A stretch of 5,349 nt of DNA from a virus (Duplodnaviria; Heunggongvirae; Uroviricota; Caudoviricetes), in the IMG/VR virus record IMGVR_UViG_2684622670_000010, positions 1 to 5,349 of that record; one strand, given 5' to 3'. Position numbers and translations under genes: made by a program. Shown piece by piece: positions 1-5,349 of this stretch. Within the stretch, counting starts at the first letter, position 1; each line of letters opens with the position of its first letter. The notes below the pieces were generated by a model. That model saw only the letters and a list, made by a program, of their open reading frames with translations. It was not told the DNA's origin and did not search any database.

Positions 1-436
1 GTACCGGTTTAACCTCGTCACGGGGCTTTCTGATGGCTGAAAGACGCTTTACAAGCTCGTCCATCGCCTGACTCGATGTATCGATGGTTCCGCTCTGAAT
101 TGGTTCACGCATTTCATCCATGATTTCCAGCACCAGACGGCGGTGATAGTTATCCGCGACCATTCCGGCATATCCCTTCAGGTTTGCGGCGCTCGGGCAG
201 TTTTTGCTGGTCATCAGGATTGACGTGAAATGCTCCTCTCCGCACGCCTCGGCAACCATCAGCGCGTCGATTAGGTTTCTGTTTCTCGCCTGCTTGCGGA
301 TAACCTCGAAGGCTTTCCGGTAGAGCGGAATTGAAAACGCTTCCGGCTCAAGCGTTGCCAGAACGTCACTGGCAATTGGTGTTAATCCACCAATCAGCAG
401 GCCACCGATAACGCTCGCTTCGATATCCTGTTTCAT
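1..436 (-). CDS. DnaB-family replicative helicase, N-terminal part (partial; start codon at 436..434, gene runs off the left edge of the window)
   Basis: Hand translation of the minus strand from ATG 436..434 gives 145 codons with no stop ([34 protein letters not shown]...[34 protein letters not shown]...). The SVIGGLL and KNxPSAAN-x-YA-x-V motifs resemble the N-terminal domain of E. coli DnaB as recalled from memory. The start overlaps the O stop in an ATGA arrangement, and a GGGGGA Shine-Dalgarno lies 4 nt upstream. Position after an O-like gene matches the P22 gene 18 / gene 12 layout. Absent from the ORF track only because it is truncated by the window edge. Confidence 0.75.
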
Positions 437-1254
437 GCAATCCCCCTGTCTGCAAACTTCCCTTCCCGAACTCCCGTTAACGAATCTTCCCTCAGCAGGT
501 AATCAAAATCTGCCGTCCAGCCCGTGTCGTTGTCTCCGAAGTAAAACGGCTTGGCCTGATGCACAAACGCCCTGACATACGCTCTGAAACCGTCCACGTT
601 TGGCGTTTTCAGTTGCGGGATGATTTTCTTCAGGCGGCGTTTGCGTTTCTCGTTGACCGCAACAGCGTGTGGCAGTCTGTCACCGACTTCGGTGTTGTAG
701 GCGTTCAGGAAGGATTCGTAGTCGATGCGTTCTGCCTTGCGACGTTCAGGTTTAACCTGCCCATCGCCGCCCCCGTTAGGGGGTAAGGGGGTATTTGTAT
801 TTATTGTCTTTTGTATATTGTCTTTTGTGTTTAGCTGACTTGGCTTATACCCATTAGCCGAGTCGGCTAATGTTTTATTAGCTGTTTTAGCTAATGTTAA
901 GCTGTCCTGGCTAATCCACTGAGAAACCACCTTGTTCACTCCGATTTTCACGCCATCAGCAATGAGGAATTTACGCTCAATAAGCTGGCGCTTGGCAGCG
1001 CAAACATGAGTGTGATGAATACCTGTCATGGCTGCTATCTGCGTGTTTGTGAGTCGATCCATCGGCTTATTGAATCCGTATGTCTTGCGCATGATAGCGA
1101 GCATCACCTTCAACTGCCGGACAGTTAAATCAGCCATCAGCAGACTGTCGGTAATCTCGTTAGCAACGCGCATGAAACCATCTTCGGTATCTGCCACGCG
1201 ATGCTCCACGACCTCCAGTTGAGGCCTGTAATCAGCTAACTTAACGACGCCCAT
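433..1254 (-). CDS. O: Replication initiation protein, lambda O / P22 gp18 family (273 aa)
   Basis: ORF in the supplied track. Residues about 40-75 ([34 protein letters not shown]) match the conserved N-terminal ori-binding region of lambda O as recalled (DLTKRQFKVLLAILRKTYGWNKPMDRIT). Strong SD (AGGAG, 6-nt spacer) before ATG 1254. Iteron repeats and an AT-rich tract lie inside the coding sequence, as in lambda O. Followed by a translationally coupled helicase gene. Confidence 0.9.
770..830. other. ori flank: AT-rich DNA-unwinding region (792-830) plus a GC-rich palindrome (770-791)
   Basis: 792-830 is almost entirely A/T and holds a 12-bp direct repeat ATTGTCTTTTGT at 803-814 and 817-828. 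Immediately next to it is CCCCC-gtta-GGGGG (770-783) followed by a second GGGGG (787-791). The order iterons, AT-rich tract, palindrome, read in the O coding direction, matches the lambda ori layout as I recall it. Confidence 0.5.
831..915. repeat. Putative ori iterons: four about-19-bp repeats with internal dyad symmetry
   Basis: Seen directly: TTAGCTGACTTGGCTTATA (831-849), TTAGCCGAGTCGGCTAATG (854-872; core TTAGCCGA-G-TCGGCTAA is a perfect palindrome), TTAGCTGTTTTAGCTAATG (878-896), TTAAGCTGTCCTGGCTAAT (897-915). Start spacing is 23, 24 and 19 bp. They lie in the part of O that encodes the inter-domain linker, as the lambda iterons do. Confidence 0.6.
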
Positions 1255-1402
1255 GTTTCACTCCTGCTTTTGCTAGTCTGTAAACACCAACAAGGCGCTC
1301 TGCGAACGCCCTGTTATTTGCTGCGGCTACCACTAATCCCTCAGGTGAATCAGGGTGTCGAATCTCTTCTTTTTCCTGGTATTTCTTACGACGTTTTGTC
1401 AT
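1241..1402 (-). CDS. Hypothetical small basic protein (53 aa) between cII and O
   Basis: Hand translation from ATG 1402..1400: [53 protein letters not shown], stop TAA at 1243..1241. Strong SD: AGGAG, 5-nt spacer, then ATG. The 3' end overlaps the O start by 14 nt. Not in the ORF track (shorter than its apparent cutoff). No recognised homolog, and it overlaps the predicted pO promoter, so it may not be translated. Confidence 0.35.
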   Translation of the reverse strand: MTKRRKKYQEKEEIRHPDSPEGLVVAAANNRAFAERLVGVYRLAKAGVKHGRR

Positions 1403-1411
1403 AATTACTCC

Positions 1412-1488
1412 TGTAGATTGATCCAGTAATTCCCTCAGAATTGCATATCAATTTGCTTAGAGTCCCCGGCGGCCACCGGGGATTTTTT
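1412..1488 (+). ncRNA. oop: oop-like antisense RNA (about 77 nt) overlapping the 3' end of cII
   Basis: Extended -10 promoter on the plus strand (TG-t-CATAAT at 1397-1405) with a predicted start near 1412. Intrinsic terminator at 1464-1488 lies inside the cII coding sequence on the opposite strand. The geometry (about 77 nt, about 53 nt antisense to the cII 3' end, origin in the cII-O interval) matches lambda oop RNA. The -35 is weak and the 5' end is a prediction. Confidence 0.45.
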
Positions 1489-1731
1489 CTTTGTGATTCC
1501 ATCAAGCGCATACTTAAAAGCCCTGCTAATCGGACTGATGTCTGATGCCATTCCGAAAGCACACAAGACCGAAGCAATAAATCTCCAGTCCGTTCTGCTT
1601 ATCTTCGATTCATGACAGCCAATCATCTTTGCCAGACCGCGCTGTGTAAGCGTTGACAGGTTGATGAGTAAATCTGTTTCTGCGCGATCAACGTCGCGCT
1701 GTGATAGTTTGCTGTAACTTGTTTGTTCCAT
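1435..1731 (-). CDS. cII: CII-family transcriptional activator (98 aa; P22 c1 / lambda cII analog)
   Basis: ORF in the track. The HTH segment (GLAKMIGCHESKISRTD) and the C-terminal tail (KKKSPVAAGDSKQIDMQF) parallel lambda CII (recalled ...NKKRPAATERSEQIQMEF). Sits between cro/nutR and the O gene, as in lambdoid phages. Confidence 0.85.
   Translation of the reverse strand: MEQTSYSKLSQRDVDRAETDLLINLSTLTQRGLAKMIGCHESKISRTDWRFIASVLCAFGMASDISPISRAFKYALDGITKKKSPVAAGDSKQIDMQF
1464..1488 (+). terminator. Rho-independent terminator (oop-type) embedded antisense within cII
   Basis: CCCCGG (1464-1469), loop cggcca, CCGGGG (1476-1481), then A and TTTTTT (1483-1488). GC stem plus U-run on the plus strand only. 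Confidence 0.6.
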
Positions 1732-1741
1732 TTCTTACTAT
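1709..1741 (+). promoter_or_regulatory. Candidate PRE (CII-activated promoter for repressor establishment), reading toward cI antisense to cro
   Basis: TTGC (1709-1712), 6 bp, TTGT (1719-1722) resembles the CII site TTGC-N6-TTGC flanking a -35. A -10-like TACTAT (1736-1741) follows at a 17-bp spacing. The cII start codon on the opposite strand (1731..1729) falls in the spacer, as at lambda PRE. The second repeat is imperfect. Confidence 0.35.
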
Positions 1742-1795
1742 TTCCATAGGTAAATAATCACTAATACCCATCTTTCGATGAGCGCTTAATTAGTT

Positions 1796-1830
1796 ACCGC
1801 GTTGTCGGCGGTGCAGATTGATAAAGAGCG
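1796..1830 (-). promoter_or_regulatory. nutR (boxA + boxB N-utilisation site) in the cro-cII intergenic region
   Basis: Minus-strand reading: boxA CGCTCTTTA (1830..1822), 9-nt spacer, boxB ACCGC-CGACAAC-GCGGT (1812..1796), a 5-bp stem with a GACAA-containing loop. As recalled, this matches the P22 nutR boxB (ACCGCCGACAACGCGGU). A rho-dependent tR1 is expected downstream but cannot be seen from sequence. Confidence 0.7.
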
Positions 1831-1837
1831 ATGTTAC

Positions 1838-2065
1838 TTATGCAGCCAGAAGGTTCTTTTTGCTTATTTCAAGCATTTCGCTTGCTTGATATTTGCCACC
1901 AGAAATCTCTTCGATTTTTGATGCATATTTCGTTTTCCCAAAAAACTCAGTCTTAGGGAGGAAGCCGTTTTTAAGCCACTTATAGACAGCCCTTTCGCTA
2001 ACTCCACAAGCCTTCGCAACTTCAGGGATGCCGACACCTTTAATCGGCTCATCAAGATTTTGCAT
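1838..2065 (-). CDS. cro: Cro-like HTH DNA-binding protein (75 aa from ATG 2065; the track ORF extends to an upstream ATG at 2098)
   Basis: Divergent from the repressor gene. HTH-like segment IPEVAKACGVSERAVYKWLKNG. SD AAGGA lies 7-8 nt before ATG 2065; the upstream ATG 2098 has no SD and sits inside the predicted PR -10. Lysine-rich C-terminal tail. No recalled similarity to lambda or P22 Cro, so the call rests on position and the HTH. Confidence 0.7.
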   Translation of the reverse strand: MQNLDEPIKGVGIPEVAKACGVSERAVYKWLKNGFLPKTEFFGKTKYASKIEEISGGKYQASEMLEISKKNLLAA

Positions 2066-2143
2066 AGGAATATCCTTTTTCGTACTTTCAGTACGCATTA
2101 TGATTGAACTGAAAGTTTTTGCAAGTGCTTTAGTATCGTACTC
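2066..2143. promoter_or_regulatory. OR region: divergent PR (toward cro) and PRM (toward cI) with three dyad-symmetric candidate operators
   Basis: PR on the minus strand: -35 TTGCAA (2119-2124), 16-bp spacer, -10 CATAAT (2102..2097). Candidate operators: GTAC-tttca-GTAC (2082-2094), GAAC-tgaaa-GTTT (2106-2118), AGTA-tcg-TACT (2132-2142), with centres 24-25 bp apart. The cI ATG at 2144 has no SD, and a -10-like TAGTAT (2131-2136) would start a leaderless mRNA, as at lambda PRM. Confidence 0.55.
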
Positions 2144-2851
2144 ATGGTTCAGAATGAAAAAGTGCGCAAAGAATTCGCCCAGCGGCTAGCGCAAGCCTGT
2201 AAAGAAGCTGGTCTTGATGAACATGGTAGGGGGATGGCCATAGCCCGTGCCCTTTCTCTTTCGTCCAAAGGCGTTAGCAAATGGTTTAATGCTGAGTCTT
2301 TACCGCGTCAGGAAAAAATGAATGCGCTTGCGAAATTTCTAAACGTTGATGTTGTTTGGCTTCAGCACGGCACTTCGTTAAATGGAGCGAATGATGAAGA
2401 TACTCTTTCATTTGTTGGCAAATTAAAAAAAGGGTTAGTGCGCGTGGTTGGTGAGGCAATTCTTGGTGTTGATGGTGCCATCGAGATGACCGAAGAGCGC
2501 GATGGGTGGCTCAAGATTTATAGCGATGATCCAGATGCCTTTGGTCTTCGTGTGAAAGGAGACAGCATGTGGCCCAGAATAAAATCAGGAGAATATGTAC
2601 TCATTGAGCCTAACACCAAAGTATTCCCGGGTGATGAGGTGTTTGTCAGAACCATCGAAGGACACAACATGATCAAGATTCTTGGCTATGACAGAGACGG
2701 AGAATACCAATTTACAAGCATCAACCAAGACCATAGGCCAATAACGTTGCCTTATCATCAAGTAGCAAAGGTGGAGTATGTGGCTGGTATTCTGAAACAA
2801 TCTCGCCATCTGGATGACATCGAGGCAAGGGAGTGGCTGAGAGATTCCTGA
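2144..2851 (+). CDS. cI: Prophage repressor, CI/LexA family (N-terminal HTH domain + C-terminal S24 peptidase autocleavage domain; 235 aa)
   Basis: ORF in the track. N-terminal HTH (GMAIARALSLSSKGVSKWFNAE). C-terminal S24 catalytic serine motif GDSMWP and a downstream lysine (NMIKIL). Divergent from cro with the operator region between. No leader, consistent with PRM-type expression. Confidence 0.9.
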   Translation: MVQNEKVRKEFAQRLAQACKEAGLDEHGRGMAIARALSLSSKGVSKWFNAESLPRQEKMNALAKFLNVDVVWLQHGTSLNGANDEDTLSFVGKLKKGLVRVVGEAILGVDGAIEMTEERDGWLKIYSDDPDAFGLRVKGDSMWPRIKSGEYVLIEPNTKVFPGDEVFVRTIEGHNMIKILGYDRDGEYQFTSINQDHRPITLPYHQVAKVEYVAGILKQSRHLDDIEAREWLRDS

Positions 2852-2957
2852 CATCAGAGTCATAGAGTGAGTTTTCTAGTTAGAAATAGTGGTCAATGGG
2901 TACGCTTAGGTAAACCGTTTAAACATAATAAACAAGCCATATAAGATGAAATAAATC

Positions 2958-3335
2958 ATGAGCGATAAAGAGTTTAAAGTACTTGATTTTGATGATTTTG
3001 CTCATTATTTGAGCACATTGAACGGCGAACAAATTTGTCCAATGTGTATGGAAGAGTCATGGACGCTTTTCGCCCCAAACAAGCTTCCTCCAGAAGACGA
3101 GGATAGGTATGTAATAAGTTCTATCCCAGGATCACTTATTTCAAGTAAAAAACCTGAAAAATCAAATCTCTTCTTCAGAAGTTACAACAACGATGTCCTC
3201 CTGATGCAATGCAGAAATTGTGGATACATGGCATTTTTTAATTATAAAAAAGTCCAAGAAAACCTTGAATCAGGGGATTATATAAAAAAAGAAGATATAG
3301 ATATGGTGGATGAAAATGACAAATCAGAAGACTGA
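2958..3335 (+). CDS. Hypothetical protein (125 aa) with two CxxC pairs (putative zinc ribbon) and an acidic C-terminus; first gene of the AT-rich cassette after cI
   Basis: ORF in the track. CPMC (residues 27-30) and CRNC (85-88); tail DIDMVDENDKSED. Sampled 60-nt lines give about 25-38% GC against about 52% in cI. Weak SD. Separated from the cI stop by an AT-rich 106-bp spacer. No recognised homolog. Confidence 0.6.
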   Translation: MSDKEFKVLDFDDFAHYLSTLNGEQICPMCMEESWTLFAPNKLPPEDEDRYVISSIPGSLISSKKPEKSNLFFRSYNNDVLLMQCRNCGYMAFFNYKKVQENLESGDYIKKEDIDMVDENDKSED

Positions 3336-3795
3336 TTTCTTCCGTCCAATGGAGTATGATAATAACTATGAGCAATTTGGTGTTATAGAAGCACACAGGA
3401 ATGGTCGTTCTACTCCGTCATATCAGCCAGGCACCATTGGTAAGGATATCCCGGTTATTATTGCGCATAAGTTAAGCGATCAACCAGCAGGGGGTGAGCC
3501 ACAGATGAGCGTAAAATCACTGTCACGTTGGGAGTTTTGGCTAGGGATTTTCACTGCCATTATTGGGATATTTTCCATTGTTGTAGGAGCAACGTGGACA
3601 ATTTCTAATAATATCAATGATAAGATTAATGCATCAAGACAAGAGCTAACTGGGAACATCCAATCCAGTCGAGCAGAAATCACGGCAAGAATTGACAGGC
3701 TCGAAGATAAGATGGAGTCTAATTTCAAAGAAACATCATCGAATCTGTTCAAAATACAGGCAATTCTAGAAGCAAAATCCGACAAAGAAAAATAA
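3316..3795 (+). CDS. Hypothetical single-pass membrane protein (about 159 aa; the track ORF begins at 3310); second gene of the cassette
   Basis: Hydrophobic segment WEFWLGIFTAIIGIFSIVVGATW (about residues 74-96) flanked by K/R on the N-terminal side. C-terminal about 65 residues are polar and heptad-like (ELTGNIQSSRAEITARIDRLEDKMESNF). GGTGGA lies 5 nt before ATG 3316. The start overlaps the upstream gene's stop (3333-3335) by about 20 nt, suggesting translational coupling. About 30-42% GC in sampled lines. Confidence 0.6.
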   Translation: MTNQKTDFFRPMEYDNNYEQFGVIEAHRNGRSTPSYQPGTIGKDIPVIIAHKLSDQPAGGEPQMSVKSLSRWEFWLGIFTAIIGIFSIVVGATWTISNNINDKINASRQELTGNIQSSRAEITARIDRLEDKMESNFKETSSNLFKIQAILEAKSDKEK

Positions 3796-3800
3796 GAAAG

Positions 3801-3827
3801 TCCGGCCTCAGCGCCGGGTTTCCTTTG
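3801..3827 (+). terminator. Rho-independent terminator ending the cI-cassette transcript (tImm-like)
   Basis: UCCGGC (3801-3806), loop cucagc, GCCGGG (3813-3818), then TTTCCTTTG, 6 nt after the stop of the 159-aa gene. The U-tract is interrupted, so predicted strength is moderate. The A-rich 5' flank could allow some bidirectional activity. Confidence 0.5.
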
Positions 3828-3994
3828 CCTAACGATCGCCCTCCCATATTTAATAGCCGCAAATGTGGTAAACCGCGAACCAACTCACCAGCAATACTCC
3901 CTCCAACTACAGACCAATCTGCAGCATTTACAAAAATAAATTTCCTTATATATCAAAATCATATCTCGCTGCATTAATAAATCACAAAAATTTC

Positions 3995-4036
3995 GTACCA
4001 ATAGTTCTTGATAATATCGAACTATTGGTTCATTAT
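3995..4036 (+). promoter_or_regulatory. pL with overlapping OL operators
   Basis: -35 TTGATA (4008-4013), 17-bp spacer, -10 CATTAT (4031-4036), predicted start near 4043. Two dyads of the same type as in OR: GTAC-caata-GTTC (3995-4007) and GAAC-tattg-GTTC (4019-4031), centres 24 bp apart, overlapping -35 and the spacer/-10. A longer 10-bp inverted repeat CCAATAGTTC (3998-4007) / GAACTATTGG (4019-4028) spans the promoter. Confidence 0.5.
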
Positions 4037-4081
4037 CATCACATCAGCAGGACGCTGGAAGCCAAACGGAACAGATTGGCA

Positions 4082-4116
4082 GGCTCTTTAACTTCGATGG
4101 GGCGCTGACAAAGCGC
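4082..4116 (+). promoter_or_regulatory. nutL (boxA-like + boxB) downstream of pL
   Basis: boxA-like GGCTCTTTA (4082-4090), 11-nt spacer, boxB GCGCT-GACAA-AGCGC (4102-4116), a perfect 5-bp stem with a 5-nt loop. As recalled, this is identical to the P22 nutL boxB RNA (GCGCUGACAAAGCGC). Lies about 40 nt after the predicted pL start and about 120 nt before N. Confidence 0.75.
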
Positions 4117-4235
4117 AAACAGATACCAAACGAGATGGGTTTGGCGGTGATGTGAATTGCAGCTGCAACGACAGCAACCAGAAGATCAGCATCTGGCGCA
4201 TCACCACCAAAGCCATTTCACATGAGGAAAACATC

Positions 4236-4571
4236 ATGACGGTAATCGTGTACGGAAAATCAACATTTGCAGGAAATGCCAAAACTCGCCGTCATGAGCG
4301 GCGCAGAAAGCTGGCTATCGAGCGTGATGCCATCTGCAACATCATCGATTCGATCTTCGGCACAGACAGTGAGGAGCCTGTTCAGGAAGCCCCGAGAAAA
4401 CGTTTAAGCCTTTCTGAAAAAGCAATATCACTCGGAAGCCTTCGCTGCAAGAAGGCAGAAGAAGTCGAGCGTAAACAGAACCGTATTTACTACCGCAAGC
4501 CACGCAGTGAAATGGGTGTGACTTGTGTTGGTCGCCAGAAAATGAAATTAGGCAGCAAACCACTTATTTGA
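4236..4571 (+). CDS. N: N-family transcription antiterminator (111 aa) with a P22-type arginine-rich motif
   Basis: Internal ATG 4236 of track ORF 4152..4571, preceded by SD GAGGA with a 7-nt spacer. The N-terminus MTVIVYGKSTFAGNAKTRRHERRRKLAIERD contains GNAKTRRHERRRKLAIER, which I recall as the P22 N boxB-binding peptide. The C-terminus (RIYYRKPRSEMGVTCVGRQKMKLGSKPLI) parallels lambda N as recalled (RTWYSKPGERGITCSGRQKIKGKSIPLI). First gene after pL/nutL. Confidence 0.85.
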   Translation: MTVIVYGKSTFAGNAKTRRHERRRKLAIERDAICNIIDSIFGTDSEEPVQEAPRKRLSLSEKAISLGSLRCKKAEEVERKQNRIYYRKPRSEMGVTCVGRQKMKLGSKPLI

Positions 4572-4579
4572 GGTGATAT

Positions 4580-5029
4580 ATGGAAGAACAAGCAAACAAG
4601 ATTCTCGTAGAACTACTGCAAAAAGCCAGCAATGGAATAGACGCGGCCGTTTCATTTAGCCAGGCACAGATTCCTGATGTTGTTCATCAGTTGCTGCTAT
4701 GGAATATGGTTGACAGTCTGATTAAAACATTAATAGCCATTCTAACAATCCCACTGGTTTTCTGGTTTATGAAGAAGCAGTGCCAAAGAGTTGAGATAGG
4801 TAAAATCGGTGATGAAGGATATTCATGGGAGAAGGGAAATCCCAAATACAGGCCGACAATGGTTTGGGATAGCAAAGGTGATATTAATCTTCTTATCATG
4901 CCATTGGTTGGAGTTTTGACTCTGTGGGGGATTTTTATTATTGGTGTAGTAACCAATATGACTTGGTTAAAAATTTGGCTGGCTCCAAAGCTTTACCTTA
5001 TCGAATATGCAGCATCATTGGTTAAGTAA
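4580..5029 (+). CDS. Hypothetical small membrane protein (149 aa, two predicted TM segments) immediately downstream of N
   Basis: ORF in the track. The ATG lies 8 nt after the N stop and is preceded by GAGGTGA. Hydrophobic segments IKTLIAILTIPLVFWFM and LLIMPLVGVLTLWGIFIIGVVTNMTWL. Followed directly by an intrinsic terminator. No homolog recognised. Confidence 0.6.
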   Translation: MEEQANKILVELLQKASNGIDAAVSFSQAQIPDVVHQLLLWNMVDSLIKTLIAILTIPLVFWFMKKQCQRVEIGKIGDEGYSWEKGNPKYRPTMVWDSKGDINLLIMPLVGVLTLWGIFIIGVVTNMTWLKIWLAPKLYLIEYAASLVK

Positions 5030-5033
5030 TTTC

Positions 5034-5060
5034 AGGCCGCATAGTCGGCCTTTATTTTTG
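5034..5060 (+). terminator. Rho-independent terminator (tL1-like) after the N / membrane-protein pair
   Basis: AGGCCG (5034-5039), loop catagt, CGGCCT (5046-5051), then TTATTTTTG (5052-5060), 4 nt after the stop codon. Confidence 0.7.
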
Positions 5061-5178
5061 GCACTAACAACAGAATAAACACAGCACTGTGTATTCATTC
5101 CAACGAGTGAATACACGGAGCAATGTCGCTCGTAACTAAACAGGAGCCGACTTGTTCTGATCATTGGAAATCTTCTTT

Positions 5179-5206
5179 GCCCTCTAATGTGAGGGCGATT
5201 TTTTAT
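5179..5206 (+). terminator. Second rho-independent terminator
   Basis: GCCCTC (5179-5184), loop taatgt, GAGGGC (5191-5196), then GATTTTTTAT (5197-5206). Confidence 0.6.
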
Positions 5207-5224
5207 CTATGAGGATATGAATAG

Positions 5225-5349
5225 ATGTCAAACATCAAAAAATACATCATTGATTACGACTGGAAAGCATCAATAGAAATTGAAATCGACCATGACGTAA
5301 TGACAGAGGAAAAACTTCACCAGATTAATAATTTCTGGTCAGACTCTGA
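5225..5349 (+). CDS. Hypothetical protein, N-terminal 41 codons only (runs off the right edge of the window)
   Basis: ATG 5225 preceded by GAGGA (5211-5215, 9-nt spacer). Open frame to the window end: MSNIKKYIIDYDWKASIEIEIDHDVMTEEKLHQINNFWSDS. AT-rich. Not in the ORF track because no stop falls within the window. Confidence 0.4.
   Translation, partial: MSNIKKYIIDYDWKASIEIEIDHDVMTEEKLHQINNFWSDS

Follow-up and report, generated by a model that had tools for sequence, protein, structure and literature searches.

We describe here two overlapping genes, A and B, that lie directly behind the prophage repressor gene of a lambdoid immunity region. The region is contained in the window, by which we mean the whole stretch of 5,349 nucleotides that was analysed (positions 1 to 5,349 of IMG/VR record IMGVR_UViG_2684622670_000010, a virus of the Caudoviricetes). 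It is well supported that A and B form a mobile two-gene operon, whose products are a cytosolic protein with four cysteines and a coiled-coil protein that crosses the membrane once, and equally well supported that the two genes have been kept together over long evolutionary distances. As to function, our leading reading falls somewhat short of probable: a lysogen-expressed scheme resembling Rex, unrelated to it in sequence, in which A would control or trigger an oligomeric B at the membrane and thereby exclude other phages.

The original prediction, made from the letters of the window, had described two co-oriented, overlapping genes after the repressor gene cI, and these are present as described. 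The open reading frame (ORF) of A spans 2958-3335 on the + strand (125 aa) and that of B 3316-3795 on the same strand (159 aa), with an alternative ATG at 3310 that would give 161 aa. The start at 3316 is the likelier one, since most homologues begin MTNQ and since GGTGG precedes that ATG. A first scan (tblastn and IMG/VR) identified 17 viral loci with an A homologue, and a B homologue is found immediately 3' in 17 of 17. Overall, a survey of relatives for co-occurrence of the pair found a bitopic membrane protein directly after the A homologue in 34 of 35 loci, even where A is only ∼20-30% identical; many of the 35 loci are closely related, and the counts should not be read as independent events. 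Both ORFs keep their length, order and overlap down to ∼20-35% identity, and in unsaturated pairs A has a ratio of nonsynonymous to synonymous substitution rates (dN/dS) of 0.08-0.48 and B one of 0.28-0.39. The stop of A and the start of B overlap by 20 nt in the window (3316-3335, + strand) and by 8-26 nt in all relatives examined, an arrangement that, together with the preceding GGTGG, suggests translational coupling. The database members of both families are all named "hypothetical protein", as is E. fergusonii EFER_2074.

The product of A corresponds to the 125-aa acidic four-cysteine protein that had been predicted. Its isoelectric point (pI) is 4.47, with 25 acidic versus 14 basic residues, and its cysteines (Cys27, Cys30, Cys85 and Cys88) form two CxxC knuckles. 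An exhaustive profile search (E<1e-3, 50% clusters) defined a family of 91 representatives, nearly all of them 80-140 aa long, most of which align along most of their length. Across 67 diverse homologues the four cysteines are the sole invariant columns, with Trp35 and Gly89 nearly invariant, and it is from these four cysteines only that we infer zinc binding by A. The family is acidic (pI<6 in 62 of the 67 members), which argues against a classical nucleic-acid-binding role, and a function of A as a nucleic-acid binder was rejected on this ground. A matches phrog_4293, a family of unknown function, over residues 2-112 (6.6e-15), as do the distant members P0033, P0042 and P0049. Its AlphaFold model (pLDDT, the predicted local distance difference test, 54) contains a core of two helices (residues 11-20 and 96-105) and three strands (35-38, 80-85 and 91-95), and places the second CxxC between two predicted strands. 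Residues ∼41-77 form a variable loop of low confidence, and the C-terminal tail is acidic. Foldseek searches of PDB and BFVD with this weak model returned generic zinc-ribbon proteins only (E ≥ 0.06), and Pfam zinc-ribbon matches were sub-threshold. The broad alignment of the family was too diverse for pattern scanning, and a scan with one sub-family came back empty. In a close relative with 96% identity over the first 112 residues (L006, 6001-6357), A is frameshifted, so that the protein has 118 aa, ends RRYRYGG and has its acidic tail replaced, next to an intact B; either the tail is dispensable or this copy is decaying.

B likewise agrees with the predicted single-pass membrane protein of ∼159 aa with a coiled-coil-like C-terminus. 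It has one hydrophobic segment at residues 74-92, a transmembrane (TM) helix, and AlphaFold predicts an unbroken helix from residue 71 to residue 158, with a mean pLDDT of 81-93 per 10-residue block from residue 71, and has low confidence in residues 1-65. The N-terminal 70 residues are variable, with an aromatic-x-Pro motif weakly kept, whereas the juxtamembrane segment and the C-terminal helix (∼65 aa, amphipathic or coiled-coil) are strongly conserved and rich in charged residues; I100, R108 and E110 are invariant, and K103, K119, D127, D134 and L151 nearly so. In the homologues of L012, L015 and L021 this helix is lengthened by exactly 11, 11 and 7 inserted residues (alignment A10). Steps of one hendecad or one heptad are what one would expect if a coiled coil changes in length but stays in register. 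B matches phrog_24865, also of unknown function, over residues 78-160 (8.8e-17), and the partner in L021 does so at 8.5e-10. A resemblance to an Rz-like spanin among the PHROGs was weak (E 0.07), and neither PHROG nor Pfam gave B a holin, hemolysin or PF10779 match.

The cassette occupies the rexAB position between the repressor and pL, as had been proposed: the order in the window (cI, A and B, hairpin, OL/pL, nutL, N) is that of lambda (cI, rexA, rexB, OL, nutL, N). The cI gene (2144-2851, + strand) encodes HTH_3 (PF01381, 1.2e-5) and Peptidase_S24 (PF00717, 4.2e-16) domains and matches phrog_4, transcriptional repressor, at 7e-49; we place it upstream of A and B in the presumed operon and count it as context rather than cargo. 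An AT-rich spacer of 106 bp (2852-2957, + strand) separates it from A. No promoter-like or terminator-like site was predicted on the + strand of this spacer, and in other loci the start of A overlaps the stop of an mnt or S24 repressor gene, so that A and B are very probably co-transcribed with the repressor. Directly after B lies a GC-rich terminator-like hairpin (3802-3817, strand not assigned). The claim of an intrinsic terminator before OL/pL was thus right about the hairpin but less so about the remainder, since the T-tract on the + strand is interrupted (GTTTCCTTTG) and the terminator scanner called the minus strand only. The folding energy of -12.4 kcal/mol (z = -1 versus shuffles) is not exceptional. 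In most related loci, B is followed by an equivalent hairpin (CCCGGC...GCCGGG), and the T-runs there are better than that of the window.

Comparison with Shiga toxin phages that share cI and N with the window favors the view that the cassette was acquired horizontally. The window and Stx2a phages are 96-98% identical over 1474-2862 (cII, cro and cI) and again over 3917-4572 (OL to N). In a blastn comparison with one of them, LC616039 (L001), the values were 97.6% and 95.5%, respectively, with no match between. The homology is lost at a left mosaic junction at 2862/2863 and returns after 3916, which defines an exchangeable cassette of 1054 bp (2863-3916, + strand) that extends ∼90 bp beyond the end of the cassette as described earlier. 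The AT bias that had been cited for a foreign origin is real but modest, the cassette having 39.0% GC (A 34.9%, B 40.0%, spacer 33.0%) against 45.4% in the rest of the window; the value of about 50% given for cI was wrong and should be 45.9%.

Other occupants of the same slot were also surveyed. The Stx2a phages hold 1526 bp in place of the cassette, encoding in L001 (3658-5004) a DUF3024 protein that matches the PADLOC candidate PDC-S43 at 7e-42 and, after it, a NYN-domain protein of 285 aa. The two look like a candidate defence pair, one that many Stx2a phages have. Of 5,426 complete E. coli genomes, 427 contain the cI of the window at 95-99% DNA identity and ≥80% coverage, and a near-identity DNA search found the cassette in none of these 427. 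Three sampled E. coli genomes carry other co-oriented cargo after this cI: an SDH-family Clp-fold serine protease with a 56-aa ORF (L042, 3432-4505), a 299-aa hypothetical protein (L043, 3438-4337), and a HigB toxin with a helix-turn-helix (HTH) protein and a 134-aa ORF (L044, 3445-4786). The cassette is swappable, and in phages with the same cI the slot holds cargo of defence or toxin-antitoxin type.

The link to repressor genes extends across the family. The gene directly upstream is a prophage repressor in 29 of 34 assessable loci, and three repressor types occur in this position: S24 cI/C2, short HTH CI and the ribbon-helix-helix repressor Mnt. Among the 17 close loci it is a cI/C2-type repressor in 11, with 27%-100% identity to the cI of the window or resembling P22 C2, and mnt in 6; seven further IMG/VR loci have a short HTH CI (4), an S24 repressor (2) or an integrase (1) at this place. 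The ATG of A overlaps the stop of mnt in phage N7 (Lederbergvirus) and in six IMG/VR loci, and the start of A overlaps the stop of an S24 repressor gene in L025. The order in N7 is ant, arc, then mnt, A, B, ORF14, then gene 16. In P22-like phages the pair thus sits between mnt and gene 16, where P22 itself carries sieA (PMC10883804). ORF14 of N7 (L002, 5922-6242) is a third co-oriented gene after B, encoding 106 aa with a hydrophobic N-terminus and no family match, and is absent from the cassette of the window. The pair also occurs with no adjacent repressor (L028, L030 and L038). The presence of three repressor types argues for use of the lysogenic promoter and not for partnership with one repressor; a repressor-specific partner was rejected on these grounds and on that of the repressor-less copies.

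Distant A homologues (E 1e-15 to 1e-4) were followed up on their contigs. In P0033, P0042, P0047 and P0058, A comes directly after a repressor of HTH_3 plus S24 or HTH-only type, and an overlapping small gene follows. The most distant loci vary, one having an HTH protein two genes upstream and one, a borderline match, having no membrane partner; one distant pair stands alone beside a putAbiC gene. Some of the distant partners differ from B in that they have a low-complexity N-terminus, a coiled coil, a TM segment and often a Pro-rich tail, and they belong to other PHROGs of unknown function. Their matches to XhlA, CCDC90, hemolysin or holin-type models are weak (phrog_1193 1.4e-5, phrog_689 7.5e-4) and below family cut-offs. 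The distant partner in L026 (3796-4380) gave a sub-threshold match to the model of the alpha-pore-forming cytotoxin subunit MakE (3e-6, 26 bits versus a cut-off of 360), which may only reflect coiled-coil composition. In L027, a GC-rich relative, a further gene (2324-2707) separates the A homologue from an HTH protein. Its 127-aa product has a CxxC...CxxC motif at the N-terminus and two hydrophobic segments, and may provide that variant with an additional zinc-ribbon membrane component.

The pair is rare in genome collections. A near-identity DNA search of 50,697 phage records and 5,426 E. coli genomes with the cassette found no match, and the N7-type mnt-A-B stretch (1,047 bp) is present in 41 of the 5,426 complete E. 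coli genomes, where both genes are annotated as hypothetical protein only. A profile search of genome contigs with B found nothing, and one with A found only Klebsiella spallanzanii and one doubtful partial match. Members of the A family also occur in metagenomic contigs that lie well beyond the Enterobacterales clade.

Neither protein had been recognised at the outset, and the profile and structure searches leave that position unchanged, with no characterised family above threshold and only PHROG 4293 and 24865 as matches. Pfam and NCBIfam returned nothing above threshold for A, B or the distant members; PADLOC-DB 2.0 returned no match for A and B at E ≤ 1 and none of note for the distant members; and profile searches of PDB sequences with three profiles returned zinc-knuckle noise only. 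Our literature search found no paper on proteins of either family. The likeness to lambda RexA/RexB is one of layout: a soluble and a membrane gene directly 3' of the repressor, on the same strand and before a terminator and pL, for which expression in the lysogen would by analogy be expected. The proteins themselves differ. A is a 125-aa acidic putative zinc-ribbon protein, whereas RexA is a 279-aa DNA-binding protein, and B has one TM segment and a long helix, whereas RexB has four TM segments. BLASTP revealed no similarity between A and RexA (best E 17) or between B and RexB (E 0.18 over 27 residues). The logic of exclusion or abortive infection by a soluble-plus-membrane design is that of Rex-type systems (PMC12894663), among which we name mycobacteriophage Sbash gp30/31, Gordonia phage CarolAnn gp44/43 and P. 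putida RexABpp for comparison.

Like SieA of P22, B is a small inner-membrane protein of a prophage, and the N7-type copy of the pair lies in the SieA slot. SieA, however, is a single multi-pass protein with an FxRYPxEAxxFNK motif (PMC10883804), whereas B is single-pass, lacks this motif, has no similarity to SieA and is accompanied by a second, cytosolic gene. The XhlA/CCDC90-like proteins (phage "hemolysin" or holin-associated PHROGs) are bitopic with a coiled coil beside the TM segment, as is B, but in the B of the window the TM segment comes first and the helix after it, and it matches only phrog_24865; moreover, XhlA/CCDC90-like proteins act in lysis cassettes and not behind repressors. 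BstA, found in the cI-to-pL slot of Salmonella BTP1 (PMC8585504), the DUF3024/PDC-S43 and NYN pair, and HigBA share the genomic niche and the presumed lysogenic expression. Their proteins are unrelated to A and B, being single soluble proteins, nucleases or toxin-antitoxin sets.

According to the Rex-like reading that we favor, the operon would be a moron that rides on the lysogenic transcript in the order cI, A, B, hairpin. A would be a cytosolic acidic zinc-ribbon protein held at a fixed ratio with B by translational coupling, and would bind B as its trigger or its brake; B would be anchored by its one TM helix and oligomerise via its long conserved helix. A superinfecting phage might then disturb A or the A-B complex, upon which B would perturb the membrane, leading either to depolarisation or growth arrest, as in Rex-like abortive infection, or to a blocked envelope step of infection. 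The pair would thus most likely shield the lysogen from other phages at the inner membrane. What points to an anti-phage role is the combination of the niches (the rexAB position and the P22 sieA slot), the alternative cargo found there, the patchy and rare distribution, the fairly rapid evolution of the proteins (between close relatives, dN/dS reaches 0.39-0.48) and the soluble-plus-membrane design. The repressor-linked operon layout, the strict pairing, the occurrence behind three repressor types, the AT-rich composition and the one distant pair beside putAbiC also count in favor of the Rex-like reading. To speak of a sensor plus membrane effector would be to argue by analogy.

However, this reading should be taken with some caution since several observations weigh against it. 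Neither A nor B resembles a validated or candidate defence protein in PADLOC, and the structure model of A is weak, with no fold match found by Foldseek. The charges flanking the TM segment leave the topology of B ambiguous, as positive-inside signals are weak and conflict across sub-families. The distant partners reverse the domain order (coiled coil, TM, Pro-rich tail), so that an A-binding surface is not assignable. Furthermore, the most conserved part of B is its helix and not a variable "sensor" surface, which fits a conserved contact with the host or with itself equally well. Membrane proteins expressed in lysogens can also have roles other than defence, as is the case for Bor and Lom of lambda.

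The alternative that survives best, although we consider it unlikely, is that the module excludes superinfecting phages by blocking their entry. The helix of B would then be periplasmic, as in an i-spanin or in FtsB/FtsL, and would block DNA injection or a host entry factor, with A as an assembly or regulatory partner. A cytoplasmic N-terminus, the default where there is no signal peptide, would indeed put the ∼65-residue helix in the periplasm; the helix is conserved across hosts, as expected of a contact with host machinery; and the spanin-like match noted above would fit. The position in the P22-like sieA slot, beside the ejection-protein genes, points the same way, but this immI position may be a mere cargo slot, and B is not similar to SieA. 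Moreover, in the proteins that accompany distant A homologues, the coiled coil has to be cytoplasmic. To our knowledge, the entry blockers T4 Imm and HK97 gp15 need no cytosolic partner, which also counts against this alternative. The same is true of SieA (PMC10883804).

It is rather improbable that the pair serves lysogeny and not defence, be it as a membrane-linked input to the lysis-lysogeny or induction decision or as a conversion function that alters the envelope physiology of the host. The persistent and often translational linkage to repressor genes could be read in this way, as could the conservation of the B helix, and lambda too expresses non-defence membrane proteins in its lysogens. 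On the other hand, the cassette is found behind three repressor types and also in the repressor-less loci, and phages with identical cI manage without it.

Quite improbable, too, is an addiction module of toxin-antitoxin type that stabilises the prophage, with B as a small holin-like membrane toxin and A as its antidote, although this would be compatible with the tight coupling and strict co-occurrence of the genes, with the HigB toxin-antitoxin set that also occupies the slot, and with the XhlA, hemolysin or holin-type matches of the distant partners. Those matches are far below family thresholds, and while the putative antidote gene does come first, nothing indicates that A is unstable or B toxic; nor would such a module and abortive infection be mutually exclusive. 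Finally, chance reading frames in AT-rich spacer DNA, which the base composition, the lack of a strong Shine-Dalgarno sequence before A and the annotation as hypothetical proteins only might have suggested, are refuted by conservation of the pair to ∼20-35% identity, dN/dS well below 1, the invariant cysteines and helix indels in coiled-coil register.

The remainder of the window is that of a lambdoid immunity region. The minus strand carries an O-like replication gene (433-1254), a cII-like gene (1435-1731) and a cro-like gene (1838-2098). To the right of the cassette, on the + strand, the OL/pL region (3997-4036) consists of an operator-like inverted repeat, ACCAATAGTTC ... GAACTATTGGT, overlapping the promoter-like TTGATA-17-CATTAT. 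It is followed by nutL (4083-4116, + strand), with a boxA-like GCTCTTTAA at 4083-4091 and a boxB hairpin, GCGCTGACAAAGCGC, at 4102-4116, labels that we take from general knowledge of lambdoid nut sites. The N antiterminator gene (4236-4571, + strand) encodes 111 aa from the ATG at 4236 and matches PF25694 N_peptide at 3.6e-26. As read from the sequence, boxB and the arginine-rich motif of N, GNAKTRRHERRRKLAIERD, look like those of P22, although cI is of an Stx-phage immunity type. Directly 3' of N, a 149-aa ORF (4580-5029, + strand) with two hydrophobic stretches matches phrog_3054, of unknown function, at 5e-64, and has no Pfam, PADLOC or NCBIfam match; a copy with 58% identity is present in L010. 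It occupies the region where lambda and P22 keep early-left accessory genes such as ral and sieB, and may be another accessory membrane protein. The mosaic with LC616039 has further breaks, with replaced sequence, at 811-1473 (the N-terminal half of the O-like gene and a 53-aa ORF) and at 4573-5033 (after N), with flanks 96-98% identical. An Rfam search of the window gave no match.

In conclusion, the module is no member of RexAB, SieA or the catalogued defence families, and by analogy it is best filed as a putative lysogen-expressed two-component exclusion module. More tentatively still than the Rex-like scheme itself, we suggest that PHROG 4293 and its obligate bitopic coiled-coil partners may constitute an unrecognised class of prophage immune module in Proteobacteria, carried behind at least three unrelated repressor types and distinct from those systems, in which an acidic zinc-ribbon protein would gate a membrane effector. 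The cI-to-pL slot of lambdoid phages and the immI slot of P22-like phages are where temperate phages keep genes that are expressed while dormant, and they have yielded several of the founding examples of phage exclusion. Both are occupied by the A-B pair, which is compact (∼0.9 kb), conserved and entirely without annotation. If it is a true defence system, it would bring a new mechanism of the soluble-plus-membrane kind and, with it, a small zinc-ribbon protein as a new regulator or sensor; if it is not, the tightness of its link to repressors would suggest a role in lysogeny that has not been described so far. The pair also offers a rule for discovery, namely to search for genes that are translationally coupled to prophage repressors.

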